DNA of 64,000 nucleotides from an uncultured Flavobacteriaceae bacterium (GCA_964478845.1 CAYZJT010000012.1:8173-72172); one strand, 5' to 3'; shown: positions 7,792-59,770, numbered from the stretch's first letter. Numbers and translations are program-made. The notes: generated from the letters alone by a model not told the origin.

Positions 7792-8445
7792 ATGGTATTA
7801 CTCGACGACCGCCTCATCTTCCCAGATCCGCTGGACGCGCCAGAGCACGTCTTGCTAGCAGTAGGCGGTGACCTGTCGACAGAGCGGCTGATGCTGGCCT
7901 ATCGGTCTGGAATCTTCCCGTGGTATAGCGATGGCGAGCCTATTTGCTGGTGGTCGCCTGATCCCCGCATGGTGTTTGACCTCACTGCGGATCAGCCTAT
8001 GCGCATCACAAAATCTCTAAAGCAGAGCAGACGCAATCGCGGATATATCGTCAAATTCAACACCGATTTTGAACAAGTCATCGCCAATTGCCGACACTCA
8101 CCGAGAATAGGACAGGACGGCACATGGCTAAATGATGAGATGCAACAAGCCTACTTAAAGTTGAATGAGTTAGGTCACGCAAAATCCGTAGCGGTTTATA
8201 AAAACGATGAGTTAGTAGGCGGACTATACGGCATCGACCTGCCAGAATCAAAGATCTTTTGCGGTGAAAGCATGTTTTCAAAGCATCGGGACGCCAGCAA
8301 GATTGCCCTTTGGTGGCTTGTAGAAAAACTTCAGGCAGATGGCTATCGCTACATCGATGGACAGGTGCAAAATGACCATTTAGAAAGTCTGGGTGGGATT
8401 ACGCTTTCGCGAAAGCGGTTTCTACAACAGCTCTACAACTGGTAA
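7792..8445 (+). CDS. aat: Leucyl/phenylalanyl-tRNA--protein transferase
   Basis: GGDLS..L..AYRSGIFPW, WWSPDPR and FCGESMFS motifs. Confidence 0.95.
   Translation: MVLLDDRLIFPDPLDAPEHVLLAVGGDLSTERLMLAYRSGIFPWYSDGEPICWWSPDPRMVFDLTADQPMRITKSLKQSRRNRGYIVKFNTDFEQVIANCRHSPRIGQDGTWLNDEMQQAYLKLNELGHAKSVAVYKNDELVGGLYGIDLPESKIFCGESMFSKHRDASKIALWWLVEKLQADGYRYIDGQVQNDHLESLGGITLSRKRFLQQLYNW
8403..8416. repeat. Palindrome copy inside aat (LSRK frame)
   Basis: Exact 14-mer. Confidence 0.95.
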
Positions 8446-9095
8446 TACATTCCTAGATTGAGGAACAGTAACCGCTCGCTGCTATCCGTAAAATCCTCGA
8501 TGCGATATTCTGCGGTAAATTGAAGTTTGATGTCCTTGATCAACTGCCTACCTAATCCCAGCGCAAACCGCTGGTCGTAGGCCGGTCGTACATCGTTTTC
8601 TGCAATTAGCAGCGTTTCAAGATTGCCCGTAAGGTAGAATTCCTTGGCATCTGTCACCTCACCATTCAGCGGTATCGATGCAGAAAACCGATACCTCCAT
8701 CGGTGGGTTGTCCGATCCCCCCGCAATCGCTGATCCCATCTGCCTCGGTGCGCGATTTTAAGGCTGTTGTATTTTCTGGTATAAACATACTGCTCGGTAA
8801 ATCGCAGTTCTTCTGGTCTGGCTTCGTCAAACAGCTCACGGTACATGACGCCGGCACCAATTTGGGAATAGAAACCCAGCTCGTAACTCACAAATTGCGC
8901 TGCCTGAATATGCAGCACCTCGGCATCTGGGCTCACCACGTTGCGCTGCTCGACAGTTGTGTTTAGATTCCATCTGGTCTCGCTTTTCCACGATAGGGTG
9001 ATGGACGGCTGCGCCAAAACCTCATCCAGCTGACCTGTTGCAAAAAATGGACATAGCAACAGGATGGGAAGAAACCTAAAACAACAGGAAATCAT
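8433..9095 (-). CDS. DUF2490 family outer-membrane beta-barrel protein
   Basis: Signal peptide; HRGRWDQR and RWRYR strands typical of DUF2490. Confidence 0.75.
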   Translation of the reverse strand: MISCCFRFLPILLLCPFFATGQLDEVLAQPSITLSWKSETRWNLNTTVEQRNVVSPDAEVLHIQAAQFVSYELGFYSQIGAGVMYRELFDEARPEELRFTEQYVYTRKYNSLKIAHRGRWDQRLRGDRTTHRWRYRFSASIPLNGEVTDAKEFYLTGNLETLLIAENDVRPAYDQRFALGLGRQLIKDIKLQFTAEYRIEDFTDSSERLLFLNLGMYYQL

Positions 9096-9660
9096 ACTCC
9101 AGTCGTTTTACTTCTCTAAAACTGATCAATTCGCCAGCATGCGAGAACAAATATTCCCTTCGATAGATCTTGCGCTTGTCCTTGAAGGCCACTACCAGTT
9201 CATAATTCTGAAAGGCGCCTTTTTTTATTTGCTGCTCGATAGACTGTGGATCGCTTTTGATAAAAAGGTATTGCTGCTGGACTTTCTCGATACGGTATTT
9301 TCTTGCGACTGTGTCTAACTGGCTGCGTATTTTAAGCAATGCCGCCTTTTCAATTTCCCGTTTGGAAATTTTGATCTCAACATCTTGGATTTTTCCATTC
9401 TGGTCGAACTCTGCACTAATTCTATTACCAGAGCGTTTAAATTTTGCTTCAAAACTGGAGCGTTCACCATCGATCTCTTTATAGTATTTGATACGTTTAT
9501 CTGCAGAATTGATAAGATCGACAATAGGTAGTGCAGGAGCAGGGAAATCATCTCGTTCAATTCCTGTTTCTTGTTCTTGTTTTGCAACCCCTTTTTGAGC
9601 GTAAAGCTGTCCGCAAAAAAGGAAAATTGTGCTGACTAGTGTAAACAAGAGCCTATTCAT
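9076..9660 (-). CDS. Secreted hypothetical protein (PepSY/BLIP-like repeats)
   Basis: Signal peptide; FEAKFK..ISAEFDQNG pattern. Confidence 0.55.
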   Translation of the reverse strand: MNRLLFTLVSTIFLFCGQLYAQKGVAKQEQETGIERDDFPAPALPIVDLINSADKRIKYYKEIDGERSSFEAKFKRSGNRISAEFDQNGKIQDVEIKISKREIEKAALLKIRSQLDTVARKYRIEKVQQQYLFIKSDPQSIEQQIKKGAFQNYELVVAFKDKRKIYRREYLFSHAGELISFREVKRLEYDFLLF

Positions 9661-9735
9661 GATGCTAAGGTAGTATTACCCATAGTTCATCGATTCTGTT
9701 TTGCTATTATTTAAGTGTGATGTTTTTTGTATTAA

Positions 9736-9749
9736 GCTTTCGCGAAAGC
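9736..9749. repeat. Palindrome copy, intergenic between divergent genes
   Basis: Exact 14-mer. Confidence 0.95.
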
Positions 9750-12091: not shown

Positions 12092-13156
12092 TTACGTTAC
12101 TATTTCACCAAGTCCAGCATCGTGAGTCGGTATCATCCACCCATTTTCAATCCTGAAAAGCCCAGAAAAAGGATCATTGGTGAAATCTAGATGACCATCT
12201 AGATCAGCGTATTGGGTGTTTGGTCTGGCTAGTGCAAAATGCAGTCCTGCGGCTATTCCCAGCATGCTTTCATCCAGACAACCTACCATCACCGGCATTC
12301 CAGCTGCGCTGGCTACAGAGTCGATGTGAACTCCCTGAGTGATCCCTCCCACCTTCTGCAGTTTGATGTTGATCATGTTTGCCCCAGCAGATTTTGACAA
12401 TGAGTGCGCATCGCTGATTGATCGCACGCCCTCGTCTGCCATTACGGGAAGTGGTATTTCTGTGGCGAGTCGCTGTAATGCGATATCATCCTGATAATCC
12501 GTGGGCTGCTCAAGCATCTGGATGTTTAGCTTTTTTGTCCTTTTGGCAAATAGCTTGCTTTTTGCAATGTCATAACCTTGGTTGGCATCAAATCGCAACC
12601 CCAGTTCTAGGCCGTAGACTTCTCTTAGTTTGGCGAGTGCCTTGACATCCTGATCCAGATCTAGTCCACCTTTGATTTTCAAGATTCTGTAGCCTTGTTG
12701 CCAGTACGCTTTCGCGAAAGCGAGAACATCATCCACAGGCATAATCCCGATGGTCACACTCGTGGCGATCTTTCTACGATAACCGCCCAAAAACTTGTAA
12801 AGTGGCACACCGGCAGCCCGCGAAATCAAATCGTATAGCGCGATGTCCACCATCGCCAGCGCAGACCGCTGGTTTTGAAGATGTTTTTTCAACTCGGCAA
12901 TGTGCAGCCTGTATTCCCATGGGTCTTTATTTGACAGGTAGGGCTCGATGGTGGTATTGATGGCATTGACCACGGACTCTGCCGTCTCGCCGGTGATTTC
13001 CATATCGGGCGCCGCACAACCCCATCCAGTCAGTCCGTTGTCTGTATTGAGTTTGAGAACTACGTTTTGGGCGCTGTCGATAGACTCGTAGGCGATCGTG
13101 TAGCCAGACTTCATTTTTAAATCCAGCACTTGATATTCGATACTCGTGATTCTCAC
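12092..13156 (-). CDS. Enolase-superfamily L-Ala-D/L-Glu epimerase family protein (DgcA-like)
   Basis: KIK general-base motif, DANQG / EQP / DE metal ligands, NIKLQKVGG and DLDG. Confidence 0.88.
   Translation of the reverse strand: MRITSIEYQVLDLKMKSGYTIAYESIDSAQNVVLKLNTDNGLTGWGCAAPDMEITGETAESVVNAINTTIEPYLSNKDPWEYRLHIAELKKHLQNQRSALAMVDIALYDLISRAAGVPLYKFLGGYRRKIATSVTIGIMPVDDVLAFAKAYWQQGYRILKIKGGLDLDQDVKALAKLREVYGLELGLRFDANQGYDIAKSKLFAKRTKKLNIQMLEQPTDYQDDIALQRLATEIPLPVMADEGVRSISDAHSLSKSAGANMINIKLQKVGGITQGVHIDSVASAAGMPVMVGCLDESMLGIAAGLHFALARPNTQYADLDGHLDFTNDPFSGLFRIENGWMIPTHDAGLGEIVT
12708..12721. repeat. Palindrome copy inside the epimerase (AFAKA frame)
   Basis: Exact 14-mer. Confidence 0.95.
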
Positions 13157-13954: not shown

Positions 13955-15473
13955 TTGCGTATTTGTATTTCTTCTGAGCCAGAAACTCAGGGGTGATTTC
14001 TTGATCTTCCCAGCCATTGTTTTTCCTGATGACCGCACCATCTGCGTATTCATCCAGAATGTTGAAAAGTGGCAGGCGCACGTATTCAGGAAGATCCTCT
14101 AAGTTACTGCGCTGTTCATCAAAACGCAGCTCCATCACACGTGGGTGTGATTTTGCCAATCGTTTGGTGAATTCGTTTTTTTCGATAGCGCCCTTTTCCA
14201 ACAGCATGTGGTAGAGGTGAGCGGCATCGCTGCCTATTTGTTTTATACTGGTATTGGATAGTTTTTGAAGTGCAAGCTCAATCTGCAGGTCGCTGTAGCC
14301 GCAGTTTTTAGGATCGGATTCAAGGGCGGTAATCATTCCTATGATCCGGCGGCACTTCTCGCATTTGCCGCAGGGATACATGCGTTTTTCGTGTTCATGA
14401 GCCGCGTGACAGCTTACCTGTTCTTTTTGCAGATCAGGATAACGCTTGAGTAAGACCTTCATGATTAGCAATTCTGACATGCTGCGCAGCAACGAAAACT
14501 GATATAAGTCCCAGCCTTTCCTTGCATAAAATCTGGTCATCGCATTATCAAAGTATTTGCTCTGATCATATAGTGCCGCGTAATGCGTTATTCCGTTCAA
14601 CGATTTTTTCTCGGTGGTGTCGTACTCGTCGCCTACGATGATGTTTTTCAGGCCTTGTTTCAACGCGATAGGCAAGACGCCAAAAAGAAAAACGGATACC
14701 GTCCACAAACGCACGGGGTAGATATCTGCACGTATACTGGCGTAATTAGGTTTGATGAATTTTAGGTGTCGCAGCATCCAGTTGAAGATTCGGTCGCTGT
14801 TGCACCATACCTTGTTAGTACGTGGTTCGCTTTCGCGAAAGCGTCTAAAAGCATTTACCGCGGTAAACCAATGTCTCCCTGCCTCGTTCACATAAATAGG
14901 ATGCGGATAGCTAAATTCCTTGATCATCCCATAGGAAACTAGGCTGTCCTTTCCGCCGCTGCTCAGGATTGCGTAGGCCTCGGGATTCGCTTTCGCGAAC
15001 CTGCCTGTCGTGCCATGGCAGGCAGGAGCGGAATCAATTTTACACGCTGGCTGTGTGAACTTGATCTCTGCCTGTGTGTATCGTTCACGCTTCTCTGGGA
15101 CTAGACCTGTAAACTCTTCAGTCAAAAATGGATTGTCCACCAGCTTGTTGCATAGGATTTCCCGACTTGTATTCTCGGTCATGTCCTTGATCAATTGCTG
15201 ATCGGTTTTGTCATAATTGCCGTCAAAAATCAGCTCACGGCAAAACAGGCCGTAATTCATCGCGACCTGAGCGACCATCATACTAGCCAAATTCTGATCG
15301 GCTAAATCCTTTTTGTTGAACAGCTTATCGTTGTAAGTGTAGAAAAGCGTATTTGTAAACGTGTTGCCGTCCAGATCGATGATTTCATAAACCGCCTGCA
15401 CCCGTCGAGGGGTGATGATGGGTTTGTGAATCCGCAGGCTGCGCAGTACGACAAAATCCTCGAGTGCAATCAT
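13944..15473 (-). CDS. Uncharacterised PP-loop ATP-utilising enzyme (MurL/QueC-like)
   Basis: SSGGKDS PP-loop and C-terminal Cys cluster CHAAH-x7-PCGKCEKCRR. Confidence 0.65.
   Translation of the reverse strand: MIALEDFVVLRSLRIHKPIITPRRVQAVYEIIDLDGNTFTNTLFYTYNDKLFNKKDLADQNLASMMVAQVAMNYGLFCRELIFDGNYDKTDQQLIKDMTENTSREILCNKLVDNPFLTEEFTGLVPEKRERYTQAEIKFTQPACKIDSAPACHGTTGRFAKANPEAYAILSSGGKDSLVSYGMIKEFSYPHPIYVNEAGRHWFTAVNAFRRFRESEPRTNKVWCNSDRIFNWMLRHLKFIKPNYASIRADIYPVRLWTVSVFLFGVLPIALKQGLKNIIVGDEYDTTEKKSLNGITHYAALYDQSKYFDNAMTRFYARKGWDLYQFSLLRSMSELLIMKVLLKRYPDLQKEQVSCHAAHEHEKRMYPCGKCEKCRRIIGMITALESDPKNCGYSDLQIELALQKLSNTSIKQIGSDAAHLYHMLLEKGAIEKNEFTKRLAKSHPRVMELRFDEQRSNLEDLPEYVRLPLFNILDEYADGAVIRKNNGWEDQEITPEFLAQKKYKYANAE
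14829..14842. repeat. Palindrome copy inside the PP-loop gene (FRES frame)
   Basis: Exact 14-mer; a partial 11-nt copy also lies at 14989-14999. Confidence 0.95.
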
Positions 15474-20714: not shown

Positions 20715-23477
20715 TTGAGATTCCAACTTTCCACACTACTGATTTTTTTTTCATTTTCCTCATTTGCCCAGAAATTTGAGATCACAGGTACCGCTCTGGA
20801 CTCGGTGAGCAAAAAGCCCTTGGAAAGTGCCACGGTCTATCTCGAGAGCGAGCAGGACAGCACCTTAATTGCTTATAGCATTACTGGTACGGAAGGCAAG
20901 TATAGTGTGAGTGGGAATACTGCTTTCGCGAAAGCGTACCTCATCATCCACTATCAGGGCTATAAAGACTACCGCAAGTTGCTTGAGATCTCAAAAAGCG
21001 AGCAGCTGAAAATGCCTGACGTGTTCCTTGCACCGGCATCACAGCAACTGGAAGATGTTATAATCACCGCTAAAAAAGCACCCATCACCGTCAAGCAGGA
21101 CACACTTGAATTCAATGCGCAGTCATTTGACACGCAGCCAGACGCAACGCTGGAAGATGTCATGAAACAGCTACCGGGTGTTGAGGTAAGCAAAGATGGC
21201 AAGGTCACGGTAAATGGGCGTGAGGTGAGTAGGATTTTGGTCAATGGGAAAGAGTTCTTTGGGAATGATCCCAAGATCGCTCTTAAAAACCTACCCAAAG
21301 AAATCATCGATAAAATCCAAGTTACCGATAGCAAAACCGACGAGCAAAAAGCCGCAGGCGAGGAGGGTGATCCCAGCGTAAGCGAGATAAACATTACCAT
21401 TGATGAAGACAAAAACCGTGGCTTTTTCTCGCGGCTTACAGCTGGAGCAGGAACCGAGGAACGATATTCCCTAAACGGGATTGCCAACTACTTCAATAAT
21501 GATTTTAAAGTCAGTATTCTCGGGAGCGGCAACAATATCAATAGCGCTGGGTTCTCTTTTGATGAGGTGTTTGACGCTATGGGCGGTAGTGCGTTTTCGA
21601 TCTCGAGTTTTGACGGTGGTGGTTTTGGGATCAATGGGATTTCCTTTGGCGGAAATGGGAACGGCATCACAACCAGCCAAAACGGCGGGATCAATCTCTC
21701 AAACGACTGGGGCGAGACTGTAGAGGCCAGCGCAGATTATTTCTACGGCAACAACGATACTCGCACCGCAACCGATACTCGCCGAACAACCTTTCTGCCT
21801 GATCGTAGTTTCAGTTCTGTGGAAAGTAATGCAGGAAATACACGCGGCACCAGTCACCGTGCAAGCAGTAGGGTAAAAATCAAACCTGATACGCTAACAA
21901 CTATCAATGTGCGCCTGAACGCCAATATCAGGGACAACCGCAACGAGCGCAACAGCAGTTCGACAAGCAGAAACGAGGCGAGCGAATTGATCAATTCAAT
22001 CGTCACCAGAAATGATGGTGTAAGTGACAATCAGGATTACGGTGCAAGCCTATCCTATACACGACGCTTAAAAGAAAAAGGCAGCTACTGGGCCATTAGC
22101 ACAGATCTGGATCGGGATACTGGATCCAGTAACTCGCTGTTTTTTAGCCAGACAGATTTTGCTGACGGTCGTACTGAAATTCAAGACCAAAACATCGACG
22201 AGGAATCTGATAACACCTCGTTCAGCATCAACCCGCGTGCTCGTCAAAAACTGGGAGAGTACTGGTCTATCTCGGCGTCCTATCGAGTGAGAGGAAATGT
22301 GAGGAACAACCAGCGATCTGTTTTTGATAGGAATGGTAGCGCGTCGCCCATTTTTAATGAGCAGCTGAGTACAGATTTCACTACCGAAAATGTATCCCAG
22401 CGACCGCGAGTAGGTTTTAGGTACAAGAAAGACAAATGGACGGTCGAGATGAGCGGCGGAATCCTGCACCAAACGTTGAATAATGAGGACGATCTGCGCG
22501 GAATTTCATTTGATCAAGATTTTACCGATCCATATTTGGAAGCATCCGTACGCAGAAAGATTGGGAAATTTGGTAGATTTTATGTGCGTTATTCCAATAG
22601 CATTAACGTGCCAGGAACCCGACAGTTACAACCATTTGAGGATCGTACAAATCCGCAAAATATTATCACGGGTAATCCAAATCTTGACGCCAGCCAAAAC
22701 CACAATTTCAGATTCAACCTGAGCAACTACAACTGGGAGAAAGGCGCAGGCTTCTACAGCGGCGGGAGTTTTTCATTAAGGGATAGAGCTGTCGCCGCTT
22801 TCTCACTAATTGATGAAGATCTCATCAGGCGCACAAGCTATGTGAATATCAACGGTCAGTACAACGCATCTGCGTATGGGACTTATAGGAAAAAATTTAA
22901 GAGGGATGCCCGTGAGATCACGGTGGGATTGAATATGCGCGCTGCTTATCGATTGAATCGGGCATTCAACAACGGGGTGCAATTTGATACACGAGGGCTC
23001 ACGCTCACCCCGAGGCTTGAGCTGCGCTATTCGCTGGATGAGATCATCGACGTTGAGGCAGAATACGTTTTGAGCAACAATCAGACAACCTTTGAAAACA
23101 TCGACACCGAAGAGCAGGACTTTACCAATCACACCGTGAGTCTTGACTTGACGACTTTCTGGCCTAAAAATGTAGTTTTCGGGATACGCGGAGAGTATCA
23201 GAAATTCGGCAATGTAACCGATGAATTTGATGATGACAGTATCGTGCTGATAGGGAGTCTGGGCTACAAGTTTTCTAAAGATCGCGGCAGCTTGAAATTA
23301 AAGGCCTACGATCTACTCAATGAGATCATCAACACGCGCCGTCGGGTGACTGATGATTTTGTAGCCGATACCAGCAGTTTGGTATTGACACAGTATTTTA
23401 TGTTGAGTCTTACTTATAAGTTCAAGCAATTTGGCGGTAAGGATCCCAATTCTGGGAATAGTATAATTAGGTTTTAG
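20715..23477 (+). CDS. Outer-membrane beta-barrel protein with N-terminal carboxypeptidase-regulatory-like domain (TBDR-like)
   Basis: Signal peptide, KQDTLEFNA, EDVMKQLPGVEV..DG, VNGKEFFG motifs; C-terminal YFMLSLTYKF. Confidence 0.85.
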   Translation: MRFQLSTLLIFFSFSSFAQKFEITGTALDSVSKKPLESATVYLESEQDSTLIAYSITGTEGKYSVSGNTAFAKAYLIIHYQGYKDYRKLLEISKSEQLKMPDVFLAPASQQLEDVIITAKKAPITVKQDTLEFNAQSFDTQPDATLEDVMKQLPGVEVSKDGKVTVNGREVSRILVNGKEFFGNDPKIALKNLPKEIIDKIQVTDSKTDEQKAAGEEGDPSVSEINITIDEDKNRGFFSRLTAGAGTEERYSLNGIANYFNNDFKVSILGSGNNINSAGFSFDEVFDAMGGSAFSISSFDGGGFGINGISFGGNGNGITTSQNGGINLSNDWGETVEASADYFYGNNDTRTATDTRRTTFLPDRSFSSVESNAGNTRGTSHRASSRVKIKPDTLTTINVRLNANIRDNRNERNSSSTSRNEASELINSIVTRNDGVSDNQDYGASLSYTRRLKEKGSYWAISTDLDRDTGSSNSLFFSQTDFADGRTEIQDQNIDEESDNTSFSINPRARQKLGEYWSISASYRVRGNVRNNQRSVFDRNGSASPIFNEQLSTDFTTENVSQRPRVGFRYKKDKWTVEMSGGILHQTLNNEDDLRGISFDQDFTDPYLEASVRRKIGKFGRFYVRYSNSINVPGTRQLQPFEDRTNPQNIITGNPNLDASQNHNFRFNLSNYNWEKGAGFYSGGSFSLRDRAVAAFSLIDEDLIRRTSYVNINGQYNASAYGTYRKKFKRDAREITVGLNMRAAYRLNRAFNNGVQFDTRGLTLTPRLELRYSLDEIIDVEAEYVLSNNQTTFENIDTEEQDFTNHTVSLDLTTFWPKNVVFGIRGEYQKFGNVTDEFDDDSIVLIGSLGYKFSKDRGSLKLKAYDLLNEIINTRRRVTDDFVADTSSLVLTQYFMLSLTYKFKQFGGKDPNSGNSIIRF
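20922..20935. repeat. Palindrome copy inside the beta-barrel gene (AFAKA frame)
   Basis: Exact 14-mer. Confidence 0.95.
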
Positions 23478-23484: not shown

Positions 23485-23498
23485 GCTTTCGCGAAAGC
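23485..23498. repeat. Palindrome copy, intergenic upstream of der
   Basis: Exact 14-mer. Confidence 0.95.
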
Positions 23499-24891: not shown

Positions 24892-24905
24892 GCTTTCGCA
24901 AAAGC
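24892..24905. repeat. Degenerate palindrome copy (one mismatch) downstream of der
   Basis: GCTTTCGCAAAAGC. Confidence 0.7.
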
Positions 24906-26518: not shown

Positions 26519-27220
26519 TTGAAGAATCAACCCATCATCCGAGTTATCATTCCCGCTTTCAACGAGGCTGATTCCATCGGCTTAGTCATTGCCGATATTC
26601 CAGTTCTCGTAGAAGAAGTCATTGTAACCAGCAACAATTCTACAGATGCAACCGTGGCTAATGCGCGTGCTGCTGGCGCGACGGTTTTGGAAGAGCCTAG
26701 ATCAGGTTATGGATACGCTTGTCTTAAAGCAGTGGATTATATCTCACAAAATCATCTACAGACTGACATCGTGGTATTCCTAGATGGAGACTACAGCGAT
26801 TATCCAGAGCAGCTGACTCAGATCGTTGAGCCTATCATATCACAAAATATAGATCTAGTTATCGGGGCTCGGGTTCCCCGCTTTCGCGAAAGCGGATCCA
26901 TGACCACACCCCAGATATTTGGAAACTGGCTGGCAACACGACTTATGGGGCTGTTTTTCAATTCCAGATTTACAGACCTAGGACCATTCAGGGCTATCAA
27001 ATATGACAAGTTACTGGAATTGGACATGCAGGACAAAACCTATGGATGGACAGTTGAGATGCAGTTGAAGGCGCTCAAAAAAGACTTTTCTTACACCGAG
27101 GTTCCAGTCAAATATCGCAATAGGATCGGGGTCTCAAAAGTGTCGGGCACTCTTAAAGGTGCTATCTTTGCAGGTGTTAAAATTTTAACATGGATCTTTA
27201 AATACGGCCTTAAAAAGTGA
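26519..27220 (+). CDS. GT2 glycosyltransferase (polyprenol-phosphate sugar synthase-like)
   Basis: IIPAFNE, FLDGDYSD, TDLGPFRAI and YGWTVEMQ motifs. Confidence 0.9.
   Translation: MKNQPIIRVIIPAFNEADSIGLVIADIPVLVEEVIVTSNNSTDATVANARAAGATVLEEPRSGYGYACLKAVDYISQNHLQTDIVVFLDGDYSDYPEQLTQIVEPIISQNIDLVIGARVPRFRESGSMTTPQIFGNWLATRLMGLFFNSRFTDLGPFRAIKYDKLLELDMQDKTYGWTVEMQLKALKKDFSYTEVPVKYRNRIGVSKVSGTLKGAIFAGVKILTWIFKYGLKK
26880..26893. repeat. Palindrome copy inside GT2 (FRES frame)
   Basis: Exact 14-mer. Confidence 0.95.
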
Positions 27221-35859: not shown

Positions 35860-35881
35860 TTACGCTTTCGCGAAAGCGTAA
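35860..35881. repeat. Full 22-bp palindrome between ftsX and DUF3098
   Basis: TTACGCTTTCGCGAAAGCGTAA. Confidence 0.95.
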
Positions 35882-47101: not shown

Positions 47102-48160
47102 ATGAGTTATCCCAAACGACTTGTTATCGCGCGTTTCAGCGCCATGGGAGACGTGGCTCTCATGGTTCCCGTCATTCTCGCGCTCAGGAAAAAGTATCCT
47201 GATGTGGAAGTTTTTACGCTTTCGCGAAAGCGTAACAATGAAATCCTCAAGCAAATCGATGGCGTACGTGTTCTCGAGGCACAACTGGAAACAAATCATC
47301 GCGGCGTCGCCGGAATGTACAGACTGGCAAAAAAACTGAAAGATCTTGAAATCGACGCCCTCGCCGATATGCACAATGTGATCCGTACCAAAATGCTGCG
47401 CACATTTCTGGGCGGCGTCAAAAAGGCGGTGATTGATAAAGGTCGAAAAGAAAAGAAAAAACTGGTCTCTGACAAGGACTTTTTTCGGCCTTTAAAACAT
47501 ACAACTGAACGTTATCTTGAGGTGCTAAGAAATTTAGGCTATGATCTAAAACTGGATGGCGACGAGCAGTTGCCCGAGCTTCCCATGCCTCTGGAACTGG
47601 CGTCAAGATTGCATTTGGACGGTTTTCAATTAGTGGGGCTAGCACCATTTGCCGCGCACAAGACAAAGGCATTCTCAGTAAAAAAAGCCAGACGACTGGT
47701 AGAGGCCCTCAGCGCTGACAAAAACATAACGGTAGTCCTGATAGGAGGCGGAAAGAAAGAATGTAAAAAACTACAGGTAGTTGCTGGAACGACAGCTCAT
47801 GTGGTCAATCTTGCTGGAACGACCACTTTTAATAATGAGCTGGCTGTAATATCAAATCTGGATCTCATGATTGCGATGGACAGCGGTAATGGACACATTG
47901 CAGCAGCTTATGGCGTTCCTGTCATCACGGTTTGGGGGAATACACATCCCTACGCTGGGTTTGCACCATTTGGTCAACCCGAAGAAAACCAGCTAATTGC
48001 CAGCAGGGATAAATATCCATTGATACCTACTTCCATTTACGGTAACAAAAAGGTCAAAGGCTACCAAAAAGTGACCTGCAGCGTAAAAGTCAAGGATATC
48101 TTCAATAGAGTAAACGAGATTCTTTATAATCAACCATCAGCTGAGATTAAGCATGAATAG
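47102..48160 (+). CDS. GT9 (heptosyltransferase-like) glycosyltransferase
   Basis: RFSAMGDV, DMHNVIR, MDSGNGHIAA and WGNTHP. Confidence 0.88.
   Translation: MSYPKRLVIARFSAMGDVALMVPVILALRKKYPDVEVFTLSRKRNNEILKQIDGVRVLEAQLETNHRGVAGMYRLAKKLKDLEIDALADMHNVIRTKMLRTFLGGVKKAVIDKGRKEKKKLVSDKDFFRPLKHTTERYLEVLRNLGYDLKLDGDEQLPELPMPLELASRLHLDGFQLVGLAPFAAHKTKAFSVKKARRLVEALSADKNITVVLIGGGKKECKKLQVVAGTTAHVVNLAGTTTFNNELAVISNLDLMIAMDSGNGHIAAAYGVPVITVWGNTHPYAGFAPFGQPEENQLIASRDKYPLIPTSIYGNKKVKGYQKVTCSVKVKDIFNRVNEILYNQPSAEIKHE
47214..47235. repeat. Full 22-bp palindrome inside GT9 (TLSRKRN frame)
   Basis: TTACGCTTTCGCGAAAGCGTAA. Confidence 0.95.
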
Positions 48161-49270
48161 ATCTGCGGCGATACCGTCACTTAGGAATTTTCCTTTTCGT
48201 GTCACGAACAAATGATCATCATCTAGATAAAGTAAATGGTCATTTAAATATTCTTCTGCTTGTTTGAGTAGGTACTCGCGGTAGTTTTGGCCGTACTCGT
48301 TCTCAATTTTTTCTAGTGAGACACCGTAAATCGTACGCAGGCCTGTCATGATGTACTCGTTGTAGCGATCGGTTGTTGTGAGTTCCTCTACTTCCATGGG
48401 CAGTTTCCCTACTTCGATGCTTTTCATGTATTTCGCATTGTTGTTGATGTTCCACCCACGGCGGTGTCCATCGAAACTGTGTGCGCTGGGCCCTATACCG
48501 ATGTATGGTTTGCCTGTCCAGTAGGCGGTATTATTTTTTGAAAAGTAACCCTGTTTGCCGAAATTCGAAAACTCGTAATTCTCATAGCCGTGCAATTGCA
48601 TGACGTTCAGTAAGATCTTGAAATGCTCATGTGCAGCCTCATCATCCACCTGCGGAATCAGTCCTTTCTCAATAAATGACTTTAGCGGTGTTTTATCCTC
48701 GACGGTAAGCGCGTAACTGGAAATATGCGGTACGCCGAGGTCTATCGCGGTGTAGAGATTCTCACGCCAGCGCTCATTATCCATGTCTGGAATGCCATAG
48801 ATCAGGTCGATGGATAGGTTGTCAAATTTCTGTTTGGCAAGTTTGATACAATTTACGGCTTCATCAGCATTGTGTGCTCGATTCATGAGTTTGAGATCCT
48901 GCTCAAAAAAACTCTGGATGCCTATGGAAAGTCGATTGATTTTTGAATCGGCTAATTCTTCTATTTTCTCTGGTGTCAGATCATCTGGATTTGCTTCGAG
49001 GGTGATCTCGGCATCTGGTATGACGTCGTAGTGTTCGTCGATTGTGTCCAGAATCCGATTGATTTCGTCAAGGCTCAGAATACTCGGCGTCCCTCCACCG
49101 AAGTAGATGGTATGAACTTGTTTTAAAGCATATTCGCTTTCGCGAAAGCGTAATTCCTCACATATTGCCTCAACCATTCTATCTCGATACTTCAAAGAAG
49201 TAGAGAAGTGGAAATCACAATAATGACAGGCCTGTTTGCAAAATGGGATATGGATATAGATGCCGCTCAA
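48137..49270 (-). CDS. hemW: Radical SAM heme chaperone HemW
   Basis: YIHIPFCKQACHYCDF, YFGGGTPS and EITLEANP. Confidence 0.93.
   Translation of the reverse strand: MSGIYIHIPFCKQACHYCDFHFSTSLKYRDRMVEAICEELRFRESEYALKQVHTIYFGGGTPSILSLDEINRILDTIDEHYDVIPDAEITLEANPDDLTPEKIEELADSKINRLSIGIQSFFEQDLKLMNRAHNADEAVNCIKLAKQKFDNLSIDLIYGIPDMDNERWRENLYTAIDLGVPHISSYALTVEDKTPLKSFIEKGLIPQVDDEAAHEHFKILLNVMQLHGYENYEFSNFGKQGYFSKNNTAYWTGKPYIGIGPSAHSFDGHRRGWNINNNAKYMKSIEVGKLPMEVEELTTTDRYNEYIMTGLRTIYGVSLEKIENEYGQNYREYLLKQAEEYLNDHLLYLDDDHLFVTRKGKFLSDGIAADLFMLNLS
49136..49149. repeat. Palindrome copy inside hemW (FRES frame)
   Basis: Exact 14-mer. Confidence 0.95.
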
Positions 49271-50421: not shown

Positions 50422-53209
50422 GTTTTTTGACATACGGGAGGGTGAGCTATCCATAAGCTTGTGGATGCTGCTTTACTTGTTTTTAATTATTTGCGCGTTA
50501 CTGATAGTTAAGCCTACAGTTAACGCGCTTTTTTTATCAGAACAAGGCGCAGACTCCTTAGCCCTCGCATTCATCATCACGGCAATCGTTGCGGTGGTGG
50601 TTTCCTACTTGTATAACAAATCTCTTGAAAAATACCCACTGAGACGCACAATCAGGGGGACACTCACGCTTTTCAGCGTAGGTTTCTTTGTGATGGGGAT
50701 TTGTGTTACTACCGGCTTTGTACCTGCTTTTCTGGCGTATATCTTTTATATAGGCGTAGGAATGTTTGCTTTGCTGGCCACTTCACAGTTTTGGGTGATG
50801 GCAAATGTTGTGTATAATGTCAGGGAAGCCAAAAGGCTATTTGGGTTTATAGGCGCTGGTGGGATCATAGGTGGAATCGCTGGCGGTTATCTGACTTCTC
50901 TGACGGCACAGTATCTAGGCAACGGCGTGCTGATCATGATCGCAGCTGTAATGATAGCAGGATGCGGCGCAGTGTTCCAGAAAATCTGGAAGGATCGTGT
51001 GTCCAATCTCACTCAGTATAAACGCAAAGAGCGAGCGGGTGTTTCTTCCGAAAGCTCCATGAAATTGATCTGGGATTCGAAACACTTAACCTACCTAGCT
51101 GCACTTATAGGTTTGGGTGTTTTGGTTGCAAAGCTGGTGGACTATCAATTCAGCCTTGTTGCGCATAGGGAAATTCCAGATCCCCAGGAGCTGGCGTCTT
51201 TTTTTGGTTTTTGGTTCAGCACGTTTAATATAGTCTCACTACTCATCCAGTTATTTGTCACCCGACGGATTCTGGAGCGCACAGATGTAGGTGTAGGGCT
51301 CGTACTTTTACCAGTAGGTTTATTTTGCTGCTGTTTCCTGCTGTTGATATTCCCAGAGCTTTGGCTAGTTGTTCTTTTAAAAGGTTTGGATGGGAGCCTT
51401 AAACAATCTTTGCATAAGAGTAGTGTGGAATTACTGTCTCTACCCATACCCAGTACCGTAAAAAACAAGACCAAAACGTTCATTGATGTAGTCGTGGATA
51501 GCGTGGCTACTGGTATAGCTGGGTTTTTTATTGTTTTTATTGTAAAGGGGCTTGATCTGCCCATGACGGCGATAACTGCTCTAACTATTCTACTGTTAGC
51601 GCTTTGGGTTTTTATGGTTTTCAAAGTCAGGGAAACTTACCTGGGAACCTTTAGGGACAGCATTGCAAGTACTGAACACCTTAAACTCTCTAAAGCCTCT
51701 GCAAAACAGATACGCAAAAACATGCGTGTGATTTTTGAAACTGGTTCTGCAAAAGATATTCTTCAAGTGCTTGAACGCCTGCCAGAGGTAGCTCATTCAT
51801 CGCTAGGAAAAAATATTATTGAACTTTTGAACCATCCGGATAATAAGGTGAAAGCGGCCGCTGTGCGTAGTCTGGATCTGGTTACAAAAACTACCCAGCC
51901 ACAAGTTCAAGACCTGATCTATGAGCGGGATGATGATCTCATCGTCGCAGTAATGGAATATCTGATTGCTAGAGAGGCCACAACCTATCAGTTTTTTGAG
52001 CACTATCTGGACGATGAGGATGAGTTCATCTCTACGGCGGCTCTTCTAGCGCTGGCCAAGGACGCCAGAGATAATCCGAAACTTGCCTCAAAATATAACC
52101 TAGGCCTTAGGGTTAACCTGTTCATCCATGAAATAGAAAGCAGCGATAACGACCTTAAAATACCTGAAATAGCACACCTCATCAGGGCATTGGGTTATGT
52201 CACTCGAACCAAATATCACGAGATCATCGGCAGGTACCTCAAACATCCCAATCCCATTCTTAAAACCGCTGCTATCGAAGCTGCGGGTGAGATGGCGCAC
52301 GAAAAATTCCTTCCGCATCTTGTCGCTTGTCTTGAGGAATTTCGCTTTCGCGAAAGCGCAATTAAAGCAATCATCAAATACGGTAACAGCATCATACCGC
52401 TTATAGAAAAGGGAAAGGGTAGCACCACCGAGAATCATGTCCTGCAAATCTATGTGCCAGAAATATTGGCCGGTTTACGTACGCAACGCTCATATCGAGC
52501 GCTACTGAGGGTTGCTCAAAATGGCGGTGCCAGACAACGTACAAAAGCTACCGAGTTACTTTATGACTGGAGAAAGTCGGGCGATGCGTACCCAGTAAGG
52601 ATGAAGAGCCTGAGGCGCAGTATAGAAAATGAGATTTCCACTTACAAGAATTTGCTTTCCTGCTATTATTCACTCAGGATCATACAGCGTTCTGCCAGTA
52701 GGCCTGATAGTAATGTTGTTTCTCTCCCAGAGAAAGAGGCTAGACAACATCTAATCAATCAACTCCATTCATCTATGGAAATGGCTCTCAAAAGGACCTT
52801 TAATCTTCTGGCACTTTATTATGATCCCAACGATGTTTTTATAGCCTACAAAGGTTTAAAGAGCGATGTCCAAGACAGCAAGCTGAATGCGATAGAATAC
52901 ATGGATGGCCTAATCGCCAGAAACCTTAAAACTATTCTTTTCCCTATTCTCGAAAACGGATTTATCCACCCAGAAGAAGTCAAAGATTACCACGCCCACG
53001 TGGATCTGAAAAAGCAGGATGATTGCTACGACTTCCTTACTGACATACCTGATAGAGATGTTCATCTTAGGCTGATCGCATTACTCAAATTAGATCAAGA
53101 ACAGCAAAGTATGCAGCACCTTATTCATTTCAGCGAGGATGTTTCTCAAGAGATTTCTGATGCTGCTAATGAGGCTATACTTTATCGCAACAAGCAGGCT
53201 ACTGCGTGA
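50393..53209 (+). CDS. NTT/TLC-family (ATP:ADP antiporter-like) transporter fused to HEAT repeats (start probably 50393)
   Basis: N-terminal 12-TM domain (SQFW..AN..YN.REAKRLFG, KTKTFID), then HEAT-like helical repeats. Confidence 0.85.
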   Translation: MKQLSQQVRRFFDIREGELSISLWMLLYLFLIICALLIVKPTVNALFLSEQGADSLALAFIITAIVAVVVSYLYNKSLEKYPLRRTIRGTLTLFSVGFFVMGICVTTGFVPAFLAYIFYIGVGMFALLATSQFWVMANVVYNVREAKRLFGFIGAGGIIGGIAGGYLTSLTAQYLGNGVLIMIAAVMIAGCGAVFQKIWKDRVSNLTQYKRKERAGVSSESSMKLIWDSKHLTYLAALIGLGVLVAKLVDYQFSLVAHREIPDPQELASFFGFWFSTFNIVSLLIQLFVTRRILERTDVGVGLVLLPVGLFCCCFLLLIFPELWLVVLLKGLDGSLKQSLHKSSVELLSLPIPSTVKNKTKTFIDVVVDSVATGIAGFFIVFIVKGLDLPMTAITALTILLLALWVFMVFKVRETYLGTFRDSIASTEHLKLSKASAKQIRKNMRVIFETGSAKDILQVLERLPEVAHSSLGKNIIELLNHPDNKVKAAAVRSLDLVTKTTQPQVQDLIYERDDDLIVAVMEYLIAREATTYQFFEHYLDDEDEFISTAALLALAKDARDNPKLASKYNLGLRVNLFIHEIESSDNDLKIPEIAHLIRALGYVTRTKYHEIIGRYLKHPNPILKTAAIEAAGEMAHEKFLPHLVACLEEFRFRESAIKAIIKYGNSIIPLIEKGKGSTTENHVLQIYVPEILAGLRTQRSYRALLRVAQNGGARQRTKATELLYDWRKSGDAYPVRMKSLRRSIENEISTYKNLLSCYYSLRIIQRSASRPDSNVVSLPEKEARQHLINQLHSSMEMALKRTFNLLALYYDPNDVFIAYKGLKSDVQDSKLNAIEYMDGLIARNLKTILFPILENGFIHPEEVKDYHAHVDLKKQDDCYDFLTDIPDRDVHLRLIALLKLDQEQQSMQHLIHFSEDVSQEISDAANEAILYRNKQATA
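52344..52357. repeat. Palindrome copy inside the NTT-HEAT gene (FRES frame)
   Basis: Exact 14-mer. Confidence 0.95.
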
Positions 53210-54418: not shown

Positions 54419-55462
54419 TTATACCTCATCAAAATTGACCTTCACCCTAGCTGATTCTGGGTAAGCCTGACAAGCTAAAGAATATCCCTCTGAGATCTCG
54501 CTATCGGTCAAGATGGAATTCTTGGCCATTTTTGCGCTGCCTTCTTCAATCAGGCAGATGCAGGAGCTACAGATCCCGCCCTGACAGCTGTACGGCGCAT
54601 CTATTCCCTCGCGCAGCATCGCATCCAGCATGGGCTCATTGCGCTGCATGGTAAAGCTGTGGGTCTCATCATCCAGCAAGACTTCAATCTGGCTTAGGTG
54701 GCCGTCTTCGGTCACCTCGATTTTGTTATCTGTGGTGGTGAAGAGTTCAAATTTGATGTCTTCAGCTTTTAGGTAATCTTTCTCGATAAGGTTCTCTTTT
54801 GCCATATCGATCATTTCCTTGGGGCCGCATAGGTAAGCTTTCGCGAAAGCGTAATTACCACAGTCCTGCTTTAAAAAGTAATTCAGATTGCTCTTGATCA
54901 CCCTACCGAACAGCGCCTCGTCCCGTTCCTCGCGTGAAAACGTATACCGCAGAACGAAACGGTCCCCGTACTCGTCCTTTAGATCGTTGAGCTGCTCGTA
55001 GTAAATGGTCTGGGCGAGGCTCTGGTTGCCGTAGATGAGCGCAAATTTTGCTTCGGGCTCATTTCTGAGTGCGGTCTTGATAATCGACATAATAGGCGTA
55101 ATACCGCTTCCTGCCGCGATGGCCAGATAAGTGGGATTAGATGGTTCTGCCTCATGGATAAAAAGTCCGTCTGGTGCGGCAACATCGATTTGATCACCAG
55201 CACGCAATTTCATGGCGTGGTTGGAAAAAACACCGTTCTCAACTGCCTTGACTACTACCGTCGGGTCTGGATCGCTGGGTGCGCTGGAAAGCGAGTAGGC
55301 ACGGCGCACCTCTTTACCATCGATTTCGGTTTTAAGCGTGAGGTATTGTCCAGCCTGATATTCAAATTCTGACTTCAGGGAATCAGGAATTTCAAAACTG
55401 ATTTCCAGCGCTGCAGGCGTTACTTTAGTGACTTGTTTTATGTTGAGCGTGTGAAAGGTCAT
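54419..55462 (-). CDS. Ferredoxin-NADP+ reductase / PaaE-like flavin reductase with 2Fe-2S domain
   Basis: RRAYSL, AAGSGITP, YLCGP and CQGGICSSC..C 2Fe-2S motif. Confidence 0.9.
   Translation of the reverse strand: MTFHTLNIKQVTKVTPAALEISFEIPDSLKSEFEYQAGQYLTLKTEIDGKEVRRAYSLSSAPSDPDPTVVVKAVENGVFSNHAMKLRAGDQIDVAAPDGLFIHEAEPSNPTYLAIAAGSGITPIMSIIKTALRNEPEAKFALIYGNQSLAQTIYYEQLNDLKDEYGDRFVLRYTFSREERDEALFGRVIKSNLNYFLKQDCGNYAFAKAYLCGPKEMIDMAKENLIEKDYLKAEDIKFELFTTTDNKIEVTEDGHLSQIEVLLDDETHSFTMQRNEPMLDAMLREGIDAPYSCQGGICSSCICLIEEGSAKMAKNSILTDSEISEGYSLACQAYPESARVKVNFDEV
54837..54850. repeat. Palindrome copy inside the ferredoxin reductase (AFAKA frame)
   Basis: Exact 14-mer. Confidence 0.95.
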
Positions 55463-57628: not shown

Positions 57629-58423
57629 ATGATCAATATAGAAAACCTCTCAAAGAATTACAATGGCCAAACTGTACTTAAGATCGATGAGCTGACCATC
57701 CAGCAGGGTGCAGCGATTGGTCTTGTGGGGAATAATGGAGCTGGAAAAACTACCCTATTCTCTTTGTTGCTGGATTTGATTCAGCCATCAACTGGCCACA
57801 TTGTAAATAACGGCGTTAAGGTTAGCGAGAGTGAGGACTGGAAACCATTTACCAGCGCATTTGTAGACGAAAGCTTTTTAATCGGTTACCTCACCCCTGA
57901 AGAGTATTTCTATTTCATCGGTGAATTGCGCGGGCAGAATAAAGCCGACATCGATAAACTCATTGCCAGCTATTCAGATTTCTTCAATGGAGAAGCCGTG
58001 GGACAGAAAAAATACCTTCGTGACCTGAGTAAGGGAAATCAGAAAAAAGTCGGTATCGTTGCAGCCTTGATCGGTGACCCTAAAGTGGTCATTCTCGACG
58101 AGCCCTTTGCAAATCTTGACCCTTCCACCCAAATCAGGTTAAAGAAAATCATCAAGCAACTAGCTGATGATCCAGAGCGCACCGTACTAGTTTCCAGCCA
58201 CGACCTACAGCACGTCACCGAGGTAGCTCAGAGAGTAGTTCTGTTAGAAAAAGGCGAAGTAGTCAAGGATATGGTAAAAGGCGCCGGAACTTTCGCAGAA
58301 TTAGAGGCTTACTTCAAGGGAATTTCAGAATTGTATGCGCCAGAGGAGGTTAAGGGAGTTGAAGAAATGGTGGCTGTTGAAATTGAGACTGCAATTGATG
58401 AAGCTGAGAATAACCAAGCATAA
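57629..58423 (+). CDS. ABC transporter ATP-binding protein
   Basis: GNNGAGKT, LSKGNQ, LDEP and SSHD. Confidence 0.92.
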   Translation: MINIENLSKNYNGQTVLKIDELTIQQGAAIGLVGNNGAGKTTLFSLLLDLIQPSTGHIVNNGVKVSESEDWKPFTSAFVDESFLIGYLTPEEYFYFIGELRGQNKADIDKLIASYSDFFNGEAVGQKKYLRDLSKGNQKKVGIVAALIGDPKVVILDEPFANLDPSTQIRLKKIIKQLADDPERTVLVSSHDLQHVTEVAQRVVLLEKGEVVKDMVKGAGTFAELEAYFKGISELYAPEEVKGVEEMVAVEIETAIDEAENNQA

Positions 58424-58607
58424 TTTATTCTGGTGGGCACTTTTGATTTATGCAGTTTTAATTGCATTCATCTACCTTTTAATCGACTGGAAATTTACTA
58501 ATCGCTCGCAACTAGATTTAGCCTATTCTGTTTGTATCTCAAGCTTTCTCTGTGGGGGAATTGTATTTTTACTAGATAGAAAACTTACCAAGAAAAATGT
58601 CAGGTAA
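58398..58607 (+). CDS. Small two-TM membrane protein (start probably 58398)
   Basis: Two hydrophobic segments; overlaps both neighbours. Confidence 0.45.
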   Translation: MKLRITKHNLFWWALLIYAVLIAFIYLLIDWKFTNRSQLDLAYSVCISSFLCGGIVFLLDRKLTKKNVR

Positions 58608-58839
58608 ATACAAAGCATTTCTCATCCGATTTGTGACGCTTATCATATTCCTAGCAGGATTCATGTTGCTTGCAAAACGACTTCTTCCCGCAGAAGAATA
58701 TGGAGATTTTCCTCAATTACTAGCTGGAGTTATTCCTGCTTTGTTGCTTTCACCACGAGTTCAGGTGGCAGAACATCAAAGTGGCCGGCGCTATGGCATT
58801 AAATTTCTGTTTTCTTCTAAGATTTGGTGGTTCGATTGA
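58597..58839 (+). CDS. Small membrane protein
   Basis: Two hydrophobic segments, LLSPR motif. Confidence 0.5.
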   Translation: MSGKYKAFLIRFVTLIIFLAGFMLLAKRLLPAEEYGDFPQLLAGVIPALLLSPRVQVAEHQSGRRYGIKFLFSSKIWWFD

Positions 58840-59770
58840 GTTGTAAGTAAACTACATCCTTTGCTTTCAACTCATGCTTGTGGCTGAAGAAGATCGGTTG
58901 TCCATTCTCATACGTTGCTTTAATCAAAAAGCGCGTCCCCAAAAAGAACGAATTTCCTACCATTACTTCTAAGCCTGAATCGGAGACTTTCAATTGGTGA
59001 GGATATAGTAAAAGCGTGCCATTTTTATTGAATAAGCTGCCATCCATCTCAGTCACTTCATCAAAAAGCGATGCTGTGTATCTGGTTTTTGGATCATGGT
59101 AGATCTCATCAGTAGATCTGTGATCCAAGATCTCACCATCGTGCATGACCAGCAATTCATCGGTAAATGGCAACACGTCCTCGCAATCGTGTGTGGCGAC
59201 GATACTGGCAATCCCTTTCTCGTCTAGGTAATTGTAAATGCGTCTGCGCAGATTGTTGCGTCTAAAGTGGTCAATGTGTGAGAATGGCTCATCCAGCAAC
59301 AGCACTTCAGGTTCTTGAGCAAGTGCTTTTGCTATAGCAACCCGCTGTTTCTGCCCACCAGAAAGTGTTTTTACTTTTCGATTACTGAATGCTGCCAAGT
59401 CGACTACTTGAAGCAATTCTGCAATCCGCCGGTCACGTCCATCCAATTGAATGGACAAATGTTCACCTACATTTTCAGCTACGGTGGTGTAGGGCATCAA
59501 ATTAAATTCTTGAGGAACATATTTCATCATGGGATGACCTGGGACCAGATGATCTTGTGCGCCTTTTAGTTCTACGCCGTTGTATGTTACTGTACCAGAT
59601 TGATAATCCAGCAATCCGTAGATATAATTCAGCAATGTGCTTTTACCACAGCCACTTTCACCCATGACGGCGAGATGTTTCCCGCCGTCCAGATGAAATG
59701 AAATGTCCTTGAGTGTGTGGGATTCTGCTTTCGCGAAAGCAAAATCAACATTTTCTAGTCTAAGCATCAA
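58817..59770 (-). CDS. ABC transporter ATP-binding protein (Fe3+/polyamine-like)
   Basis: GESGCGKS, LSGGQKQR, LLLDEPFS and ATHD. Confidence 0.9.
   Translation of the reverse strand: MMLRLENVDFAFAKAESHTLKDISFHLDGGKHLAVMGESGCGKSTLLNYIYGLLDYQSGTVTYNGVELKGAQDHLVPGHPMMKYVPQEFNLMPYTTVAENVGEHLSIQLDGRDRRIAELLQVVDLAAFSNRKVKTLSGGQKQRVAIAKALAQEPEVLLLDEPFSHIDHFRRNNLRRRIYNYLDEKGIASIVATHDCEDVLPFTDELLVMHDGEILDHRSTDEIYHDPKTRYTASLFDEVTEMDGSLFNKNGTLLLYPHQLKVSDSGLEVMVGNSFFLGTRFLIKATYENGQPIFFSHKHELKAKDVVYLQLNRTTKS
59727..59740. repeat. Palindrome copy inside the ABC ATPase (AFAKA frame)
   Basis: Exact 14-mer. Confidence 0.95.

Follow-up and report, generated by a model that had tools for sequence, protein, structure and literature searches.

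A long palindromic DNA word iterated through the genomes of Nonlabens and two other flavobacterial genera

The stretch analysed here, termed the window, comprises 64,000 nucleotides of an uncultured Flavobacteriaceae bacterium (GCA_964478845.1 CAYZJT010000012.1:8173-72172) and is interspersed with copies of a palindromic DNA word of 14-16 bases, GCTTTCGCGAAAGC. The source genome, denoted G000, is that of a marine bacterium and is placed in the genus Nonlabens by the neighbours of its RsmI protein (77% amino-acid identity to N. xiamenensis). A shorter form of the word, CTTTCGCGAAAG, has 22 exact copies in the 64-kb window, each of which extends to GCTTTCGCGAAAGC (0 expected), and no exact copy arose in 100 dinucleotide-preserving shuffles of the window. 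Near-copies are confined to one with a single mismatch (24892) and one with two (63800). The word is usually preceded by C and followed by G, often as TTAC-word-GTAA. As set out below, it is very probably a genome-wide DNA word of a small flavobacterial group, Nonlabens and two other genera, whose copies arise in place by point substitution and not by insertion, within genes on both strands and in all three frames as well as in spacers.

Sixteen of the 22 window copies lie inside open reading frames (ORFs) with intact Pfam domains, where the palindrome is read as AFAKA in five, LSRK in five and FRES in six. These figures had been given in a preliminary description of the window, and a recount with a fresh reading of the frames agrees with them exactly. 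The description had also held that the ORFs stay intact, which the Pfam domains bear out, with the caveat that the copy in the ABC ATPase lies before the start of its domain. Three of the five AFAKA copies continue as AFAKAY, with GCG TAC replacing GCG TAA, and two copies adjoin conserved residues, DPGFLLSRK in RsmI and AFAKAYLCGP in the ferredoxin reductase; both points were found as described. The copy at 4607 had been called intergenic, which fits its probable location in a 5' leader inside an over-long greA ORF. The copies are listed below in window coordinates, with the strand of each given as ".".

4607..4620 (.): exact copy within an over-long TTG ORF but probably in the 5' leader, the likely greA start lying about 40 nt further downstream; the GreA Pfam match starts at ORF residue 40
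7560..7614 (.): split relative of the extended palindrome, found by reading the sequence: TTACGCTTTCG and GAAAGCGTAA with about 30 nt between them, as if a short insert had divided a copy
8403..8416 (.): exact copy at amino acids 204-209 (of 217) of aat (Leu/Phe-tRNA protein transferase), LSRK; core gap-free against genome G416
9736..9749 (.): exact copy, intergenic between divergent genes
12708..12721 (.): exact copy in an MR_MLE-type epimerase, AFAKAY
14829..14842 (.): exact copy in a 509-aa ORF (no Pfam hit), FRES
20922..20935 (.): exact copy in an outer-membrane protein (OMP) beta-barrel/CarboxypepD_reg protein, AFAKAY
23485..23498 (.): exact copy, intergenic, between the OMP gene and der/engA
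24892..24905 (.): one-mismatch copy GCTTTCGCAAAAGC, intergenic
26880..26893 (.): exact copy in a GT2 glycosyltransferase, FRES
28805..28818 (.): exact copy in a 470-aa ORF (no Pfam hit), LSRK
32404..32417 (.): exact copy in RsmI, LSRK; conserved DPGFLLxRAC is overwritten without a gap, and the 60 aligned orthologues show no indel
35864..35877 (.): exact copy within a 22-bp palindrome, TTACGCTTTCGCGAAAGCGTAA, intergenic, just 3' of ftsX
37224..37237 (.): exact copy in a 200-aa ORF adjoining a methyltransferase (MTase), FRES
37939..37952 (.): exact copy in an Eco57I-like adenine MTase, FRES
41381..41394 (.): exact copy in a BNR/sortilin protein, AFAKA, in a length-variable linker
44375..44388 (.): exact copy in a MutS-like protein (MutS_V domain), LSRK, gap-free overwrite
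47218..47231 (.): exact copy in a GT9 heptosyltransferase-like protein, LSRK
49136..49149 (.): exact copy in HemW (radical SAM), FRES, gap-free overwrite
52344..52357 (.): exact copy in a TLC/MFS-HEAT transporter-like protein, FRES
54837..54850 (.): exact copy in a ferredoxin-NAD(P) reductase-like protein, AFAKAY beside conserved LCGP, gap-free overwrite
59727..59740 (.): exact copy in an ABC ATPase ORF, AFAKA, amino acids 11-15, preceding the Pfam domain start (amino acid 20)
62006..62019 (.): exact copy, intergenic
63454..63467 (.): exact copy, intergenic
63800..63813 (.): two-mismatch copy GCTTTTGCGAAAGT

Four of the host proteins were aligned with sets of 27-60 orthologues, and in each of them the word overwrites residues rather than adding them, as the preliminary description had proposed. 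The conserved DPGFLL[T/S/V]RAC of RsmI becomes DPGFLLSRKL with zero indels among 60 aligned orthologues; EKLVASNATG becomes EKLSRKRATG in the MutS-like protein (27 orthologues), EL.LRKDEF becomes ELRFRESEY in HemW, and.FDAFYLCGP becomes YAFAKAYLCGP in the ferredoxin reductase, all gap-free. An unselected sample consisted of all word-bearing G000 genes with an orthologue in 200-kb samples of two word-less genera, which gave 31 sites. The word-encoded residues are gap-free at 21 of these, and 18 are gap-free within ±8 residues. On manual reading, the 10 gapped sites comprise about five over-extended N-termini, two at which the outgroup is longer, and three poorly conserved linkers in which G000 has 2-11 additional residues. 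No discrete inserted block was seen in a well-aligned conserved segment at any of the 31 sampled sites. Gene calls here are crude longest-ORF calls, so that starts are over-extended and the count of genic copies near 5' ends is inflated. The BNR/sortilin copy is one of the three linker cases, with 3-4 more residues in word-bearing species; since the length of this segment varies throughout the genus, substitution and a small indel are indistinguishable there. In conserved segments the check for gaps in orthologues came out clean.

Sites that now hold the word very probably resembled it beforehand. At the orthologous positions, the 14-mers of word-less genera have a mean of 8.1 mismatches to the word, while the mean over every 14-mer in these genes is 10.7 (P<1e-4); copies therefore grow from such proto-sites. 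A second site in the BNR gene illustrates the step: FAFAKV, one mismatch from the word in many species, is made exact by a V-to-A change in two species. The alternative is a mobile palindromic element inserting in frame, of the kind of a miniature inverted-repeat transposable element (MITE), a repetitive extragenic palindrome (REP) or a Rickettsia palindromic element (RPE). Such an element would account for the high copy number, for the 2-11 extra residues that coincide with the BNR copy and two other sites in variable linkers, and for the compositional constraint on about 50 nt around each copy. It is nevertheless extremely improbable, given the gap-free conserved proteins and the 21 of 31 gap-free sites, flanking arms that do not co-vary, copies that are evenly spaced rather than clustered, and proto-sites visible in outgroups. 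Regular-expression searches of G000, which were not exhaustive and give only a weak negative, found no Y1 transposase, REP-associated tyrosine transposase (RAYT) or Vsr. Judging by the alignments, mobile insertion is excluded for the tested copies. The peptide block added by RPE-type elements, from which the preliminary description had set the word apart, is likewise not seen in them.

The peptides AFAKA, LSRK and FRES exist owing to the DNA word, and the constraint is at the level of DNA, not of peptide. In the predicted proteome AFAKA occurs 268 times against 1.0 expected from amino-acid frequencies, with 258 occurrences spelt by the word; the corresponding figures are 133 against 16 for LSRK (111 spelt by the word) and 136 against 8.9 for FRES (131 spelt by the word), while permuted control peptides are at expectation. 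The excess is therefore confined to word-spelt occurrences. Conservation of the same peptides through other codons, which would point to the protein level, was looked for and not found, as outgroup orthologues carry other residues at these positions. The gene at contig C1:100128-101175 and its orthologue in G581, a genome from one of the two other word-rich genera, hold the word at the same place in different frames (TLSRKR in G000, AFAKAK in G581), and their pairwise alignment has a one-residue gap just downstream.

Across the 3.15-Mb assembly there are 749 exact copies, accompanied by 88, 78 and 179 sequences with one, two and three mismatches. A control word, the same word reversed, has no exact copy in this genome and 0, 15 and 154 such sequences. 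The distribution of copies is thus sharply peaked on the perfect word, and 82% of recognisable copies are exact. As with the highly iterated palindromes (HIPs) of cyanobacteria, a perfect palindrome is found far above chance across one lineage (749 copies, against none of the control word). All 24 other Nonlabens species genomes scanned hold 312-858 copies, and rescans gave 581 and 722, the latter in G315, a further genome. Beyond Nonlabens only two genera are rich in the word (409 and 797 copies), represented by G581 and G601, and the rest hold 0-22 (401 genomes, 302 Flavobacteriaceae genera). The rest of the phylum scanned has essentially no copies.

Two side observations concern the word outside these chromosomes or across genera. 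Among the viral matches listed, three copies at host-like spacings of about 3-4 kb occur in the viral or proviral contigs IMGVR_UViG_2617271332_000001 (L299) and in IMGVR_UViG_3300039191_000362 (L269, L286, L291); the other listed matches are mostly single and presumably due to chance, with two or three copies in a few contigs. A copper/heavy-metal resistance island encodes an RND pump, OEP, AraC regulator, multicopper oxidase and P-type ATPase. Two genomes from other genera share it at 99.96% identity over 30 kb (G610:C1:1150001-1180000 and G331:C1:305001-335000; L237-L240), and its identity to G000 contig C6:941-17113 is 89-95%. It holds four copies at native density with identical spacings of 933, 10754 and 3991 bp, and three more genera also have the 933-bp pair. 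The island has the look of a mobile element that arose in a word-bearing lineage and spread recently.

The word is recognised, it seems, as a whole. Its sub-palindromes TCGCGA, CGCG and TTCGCGAA occur outside it at about the expected frequency, and enrichment begins only with the full 12-mer. This indicates that recognition spans at least 12-14 bp, unlike that of ordinary restriction-modification sites. Elhai's model for HIPs, in which an MTase marks the TCGCGA/CGCG core and mismatch repair corrects near-matches in a ratchet, has in its favour that the core contains both palindromes and that the abundance of HIP1 follows the methyltransferase DmtC (PMC13756078). For the present word it is very unlikely. 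The near-expected frequency of the sub-palindromes runs against it, the MTase of the window occurs in 2 of 26 other Nonlabens genomes, the only C5-MTase found by regular expression is paired with a probable HpaII-like restriction gene, and a repair bias acting site by site does not predict even spacing.

A local restriction-modification system was rejected as the cause of the word, since the window's Eco57I-like MTase has weak relatives in only 2 of 26 other Nonlabens genomes and is present in neither of the other word-rich genera. This MTase and the overlapping 200-aa ORF, each with an exact copy of the word, occupy window positions 36828-38934 and probably form a strain-specific restriction-modification pair. 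The C5-cytosine MTase, with FPCQAFS and ENVKGL motifs, lies on G000 contig C7:36360-38698 and adjoins a 360-aa ORF whose N-terminus we take to be HpaII-like; the two are a probable CCGG restriction-modification system unrelated to the word.

Individual sites are both kept and lost. In a conserved gene, DNA identity between Nonlabens species is only about 70%. Even so, 9 of 25 species have an exact BNR copy in one and the same alignment column, and in two it has decayed by one base. Between G581 and G000, 5 of 19 sites are shared exactly, with a sixth in another frame, and at four of the five the flanking ±8 residues are only 12-38% identical. Turnover is seen in G601, which shares 1 of 22 sites, and in the Nonlabens genome G315, which lacks the word at the three window sites compared (MutS-like, HemW and ferredoxin reductase). 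Conservation of orthologous sites beyond that of the surrounding sequence, together with quasi-periodic spacing, is found for the word as it is for HIPs.

The influence on DNA extends beyond the palindrome. The sequence logo continues to TT.C-word-G.AA, and over about 18 nt on the 5' side of each strand C is depleted (to 3-10%), A is also depleted, and T and G are enriched; the 3' side mirrors this, being poor in G with A and C in excess. A weaker signal reaches about 30 nt. The bias is nearly as strong at coding copies as in spacers and is strongest at third codon positions, where upstream C is changed by a factor of 0.25, G by 1.55 and T by 1.42, and downstream G by 0.31. First and second codon positions are affected as well, with C or G halved, so that a DNA-level force shifts amino-acid composition over about 17 codons. 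Downstream of the word in RsmI, C-V-E-N-G-I-E-V has become L-T-E-H-N-I-P-I, with the loss of G-rich codons. The preliminary description had proposed a force on the DNA word that proteins tolerate, as for HIP1 and for the DNA uptake sequences (DUS) and uptake signal sequences (USS) of other bacteria; the data support this, and the extension to about 18 nt of each flank was missed there. The bias is strong in G601 and weak in G581. Longer hairpin or MITE arms were considered and rejected, as mirror positions pair no more within a copy than between shuffled copies; because the arms do not co-vary within a copy, the flanks are compositional rather than part of a longer hairpin. A second discrete flank motif is absent, the enriched 5-mers being generic A/C-rich words without fixed register.

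Mirror-image composition of this kind could reflect events on single strands. C-to-T and A-to-G deamination of exposed single strands gives such a composition, and the density of Chi in E. coli, per orientation, is close to about 1 per 4 kb. The word might then be read on the strand that has its 3' end at the site, or might expose that strand. It could attenuate a resection nuclease as a palindromic equivalent of Chi, or it could mark a place where DNA is broken or processed. The G+T-rich 5' flank of each strand would be a deamination footprint of recurrently single-stranded DNA or else a selected, RecA-friendly 3' tail. The bias itself (C and A down, G and T up on the 5' side, most of all at third codon positions), the Chi-like density of the word per orientation (about 1 per 4 kb), and the presence on each strand of GCGAAAGC, a stable DNA mini-hairpin, are all consistent with this proposal. 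It ranks third and is improbable. Known Chi sites are 5-8 nt long, asymmetric and unevenly spaced; the bias ends at about 18-30 nt, while resection runs for kilobases; G581 retains the word with weak flank bias; and the predicted hairpin of the 16-mer is modest (-4.3 kcal/mol).

The copies are spaced more evenly than chance allows. Their mean spacing is 3.9 kb with a coefficient of variation (CV) of 0.57, whereas simulated random placement of equally many copies, with intergenic DNA favoured five-fold, gave a CV of 1.01 (minimum 0.925 in 300 runs). Both tails are depleted: 29 spacings are below 1 kb against 173 simulated, 7 exceed 12 kb against 33.5, and the longest is 16.5 kb. This regularity, absent from the preliminary description, adds to the likeness to HIP1 and USS. 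One-mismatch copies fit into the same array, with a median distance to exact copies of 2.2 kb; the corresponding medians are 2.6 kb among exact copies themselves and 1.0 kb from random positions. One-mismatch copies thus lie slightly nearer to exact copies than exact copies do to each other (P=5e-4). Density is about five times higher in intergenic DNA, yet about 60-65% of copies fall in ORF calls, and the AFAKA frame is used twice as often as either other frame. Convergent intergenic regions are under-used, which argues that the copies are not terminators. The longest word-free gaps are low in G+C. As a separate observation, Nonlabens G001 has a word-free stretch of 91 kb (L241-L245, G001:C1:131678-222907) with 28-37% G+C and almost no DNA similarity to G000; it is probably a recently acquired island.

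Even spacing and the shape of the word also suit a loading or binding site for a dimeric chromosomal protein, either a nucleoid-structuring factor or a ParB/Noc-like clamp that spreads over a few kilobases. Even spacing would then give full coverage of the chromosome, and functional selection would keep the sites. The perfect 14-16-bp palindrome has TTTC/GAAA half-sites, T-tracts and A-tracts occur in the flanks at roughly helical intervals (-3/-4 and -10 to -13), long gaps are absent, genes and spacers both hold the word, and the quasi-periodicity of HIP1 has led others to the same structural idea (PMC13756078). Several observations make this second-ranked explanation doubtful, however. Weak selection on each site should permit mismatches, yet 82% of copies are exact; about 90% of intergenic regions, where a copy would be free of cost, have none while most copies are genic; and a protein that binds duplex DNA would not usually exclude C from 18 successive positions on the 5' side. 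A regular-expression search, a weak negative, found one canonical ParB only and no extra paralogue.

The explanation preferred here begins with a DNA-level force that keeps copies letter-perfect and evenly spaced at about 1 per 4 kb, and that biases about 18 nt on either side although amino acids are changed in the process. That the word is a palindrome suggests a reader with the same symmetry and with sequence specificity. Weak organism-level selection on each of 749 sites should not keep the copies exact, which points to a drive or conversion process acting at each copy. Since short and long spacings are both depleted, one copy per few kilobases would seem to be enough for the process. Both properties are known from biased uptake or recombination of self DNA, as seen for USS/DUS and proposed for HIP1, and by comparison with these systems such a process would also account for the other features of the word. 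A tag of self DNA that is read during DNA uptake or recombination is therefore placed first among the candidate functions; it is possible, although short of even odds. Counted in its favour is word-poor foreign DNA, in that word-free stretches are low in G+C. The overall explanation, with its observed and its conditional parts taken together, has a probability of roughly three in four.

Several points weigh against this account. Direct evidence of competence or of sequence-biased uptake in Nonlabens or Dokdonia appears to be lacking. Known uptake sequences differ in being asymmetric, 9-12 nt long and about four times denser, and a receptor that takes up double-stranded DNA does not predict a strand-asymmetric flank bias. 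A reader gene was not found in motif searches that were mostly at the level of regular expressions. G601, judged like the other word-rich genera from a 200-kb sample, is no closer to G000 than a word-less genus is (median protein identity 55% versus 57%), which leaves a single origin of the word unproven. Finally, G000 has one recognisable uptake-type machine, a pilus-like cluster. Only 7 of 31 Nonlabens genomes have its secretin and 14 of 80 Flavobacteriaceae genera its ATPase, and no other iterated word was seen in two word-less genera with the ATPase.

That cluster resembles a type IV pilus or type II secretion system (T2SS) and lies at locus L196 (contig C2:69934-79862), with T2SSF, four or five pseudopilin-like ORFs, T2SSE, the secretin and two other ORFs. 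It adjoins a 16.5-kb word-free stretch of low G+C that includes a 1897-aa ORF. A link of the word to type IV pili or T2SS was rejected because the cluster is patchy both within Nonlabens and across genera. The missing pili are only weak counter-evidence to uptake of self DNA, since competent Riemerella also lacks pili; its uptake machine, of unknown nature, has genes widespread in Flavobacteriaceae (PMC8459023). On a further reading, which is unlikely, the mirror-image flank bias marks each copy as a place where the strand with its 3' end at the palindrome repeatedly becomes single-stranded or serves as a tail in recombination. The word would then be a palindromic, two-way signal for recombination or break processing, either an analogue of Chi or a tag for uptake plus recombination that is read as single-stranded DNA. 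If true, flavobacteria would possess a pilus-independent system of DNA exchange with a kind of signal undescribed in Bacteroidota.

A DNA-level force that reshapes proteomes is known from few cases, among them the iterated words USS, DUS, Chi and HIP1, and the function of HIP1 has been debated for 30 years. With the Nonlabens word there is now a second and independent palindrome, much longer and from a different phylum, with cleaner statistics in its near-absolute exactness, its regular spacing and a flank footprint that alters amino acids. Of about 300 related genera only three have it, a contrast that brings a phyletic search for the reader gene within reach. The word also serves as a mark of provenance, as with the copper-resistance island, of which other genera hold nearly identical versions.

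HIP1 (GCGATCGC) and the other cyanobacterial HIPs resemble the word in being perfect palindromes, hyper-abundant in one lineage and present in coding and non-coding DNA in all frames. The spread of HIP1 is by substitution, with no indels, and its copies are conserved and quasi-periodic (PMC13756078, citing Robinson 1997 and Xu 2018); it is also reported to enhance natural transformation (PMC13756078). Substitution without indels, conservation at orthologous sites, quasi-periodicity and a function long unknown are shared with the word. The word differs in its length (14-16 bp against 8 bp), its density (about 1 per 4 kb against up to 1 per few hundred bp), its occurrence in Bacteroidota, its unenriched sub-palindromes, the absence of co-distribution with the one methyltransferase checked for it, that of the window, and its mirror-image flank bias of about 18 nt, which is not mentioned for HIP1 in PMC13756078.

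Within coding DNA, the USS of Pasteurellaceae and DUS of Neisseriaceae are found where conservation is poor, and they make the peptides that they encode more frequent (PMC2817400). Like the word, they are lineage-specific, with an exact core and weaker flank preferences, lie in genes at less conserved positions and inflate peptides; they too are evenly spaced, are missing from recently acquired DNA and are shared by related genera. An over-represented exact core, flank preferences, even spacing and tolerance in coding DNA are all found for the word. It differs in being palindromic, longer, about four times sparser and without a type IV pilus link.

RPEs, REPs with their RAYTs, and the hairpin repeats of Ssn nucleases are also short palindromic or hairpin repeats with hundreds of copies, and RPEs also lie in genes. 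RPEs, however, add peptide by insertion, whereas the word substitutes. The repeats of the REP and SRM type lie outside genes, on either side of the transposase or nuclease gene to which they belong, whereas about 60-65% of word copies are in ORFs. Ssn nucleases act on hairpin repeats (NTS/SRM) with the centre CGCGMAVGCG, which matches CGCGAAAGCG of the word (PMC11893778). A link to these GIY-YIG nucleases was rejected in searches at the level of regular expressions, which were not exhaustive, the small GIY-YIG gene of G000 being flanked by a different repeat. This gene lies outside the window on contig C5:107700-108600, encodes about 90 amino acids (MPFYVYLLKCDDGSFYVG...) and has on each side two copies of a repeat of about 60 nt ending in GCCCTGAGGCTCTCGAAGGGCG, with six copies genome-wide; such an arrangement has been described for Ssn nucleases and SRM repeats (PMC11893778).

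The 14-mer occurs in no paper of the literature searched, where the 10-mer was found only in papers on absent words. Substitution, conservation and quasi-periodicity are documented for HIP1, and a coding location for USS/DUS, so that the word is known in kind. What is new is the word itself, its phylum, its length of 14-16 bp without enriched sub-words, its regularity and exactness, and a flank footprint that reaches non-synonymous positions. The word is apparently an undescribed counterpart of cyanobacterial HIP1 and of the DNA-uptake sequences.

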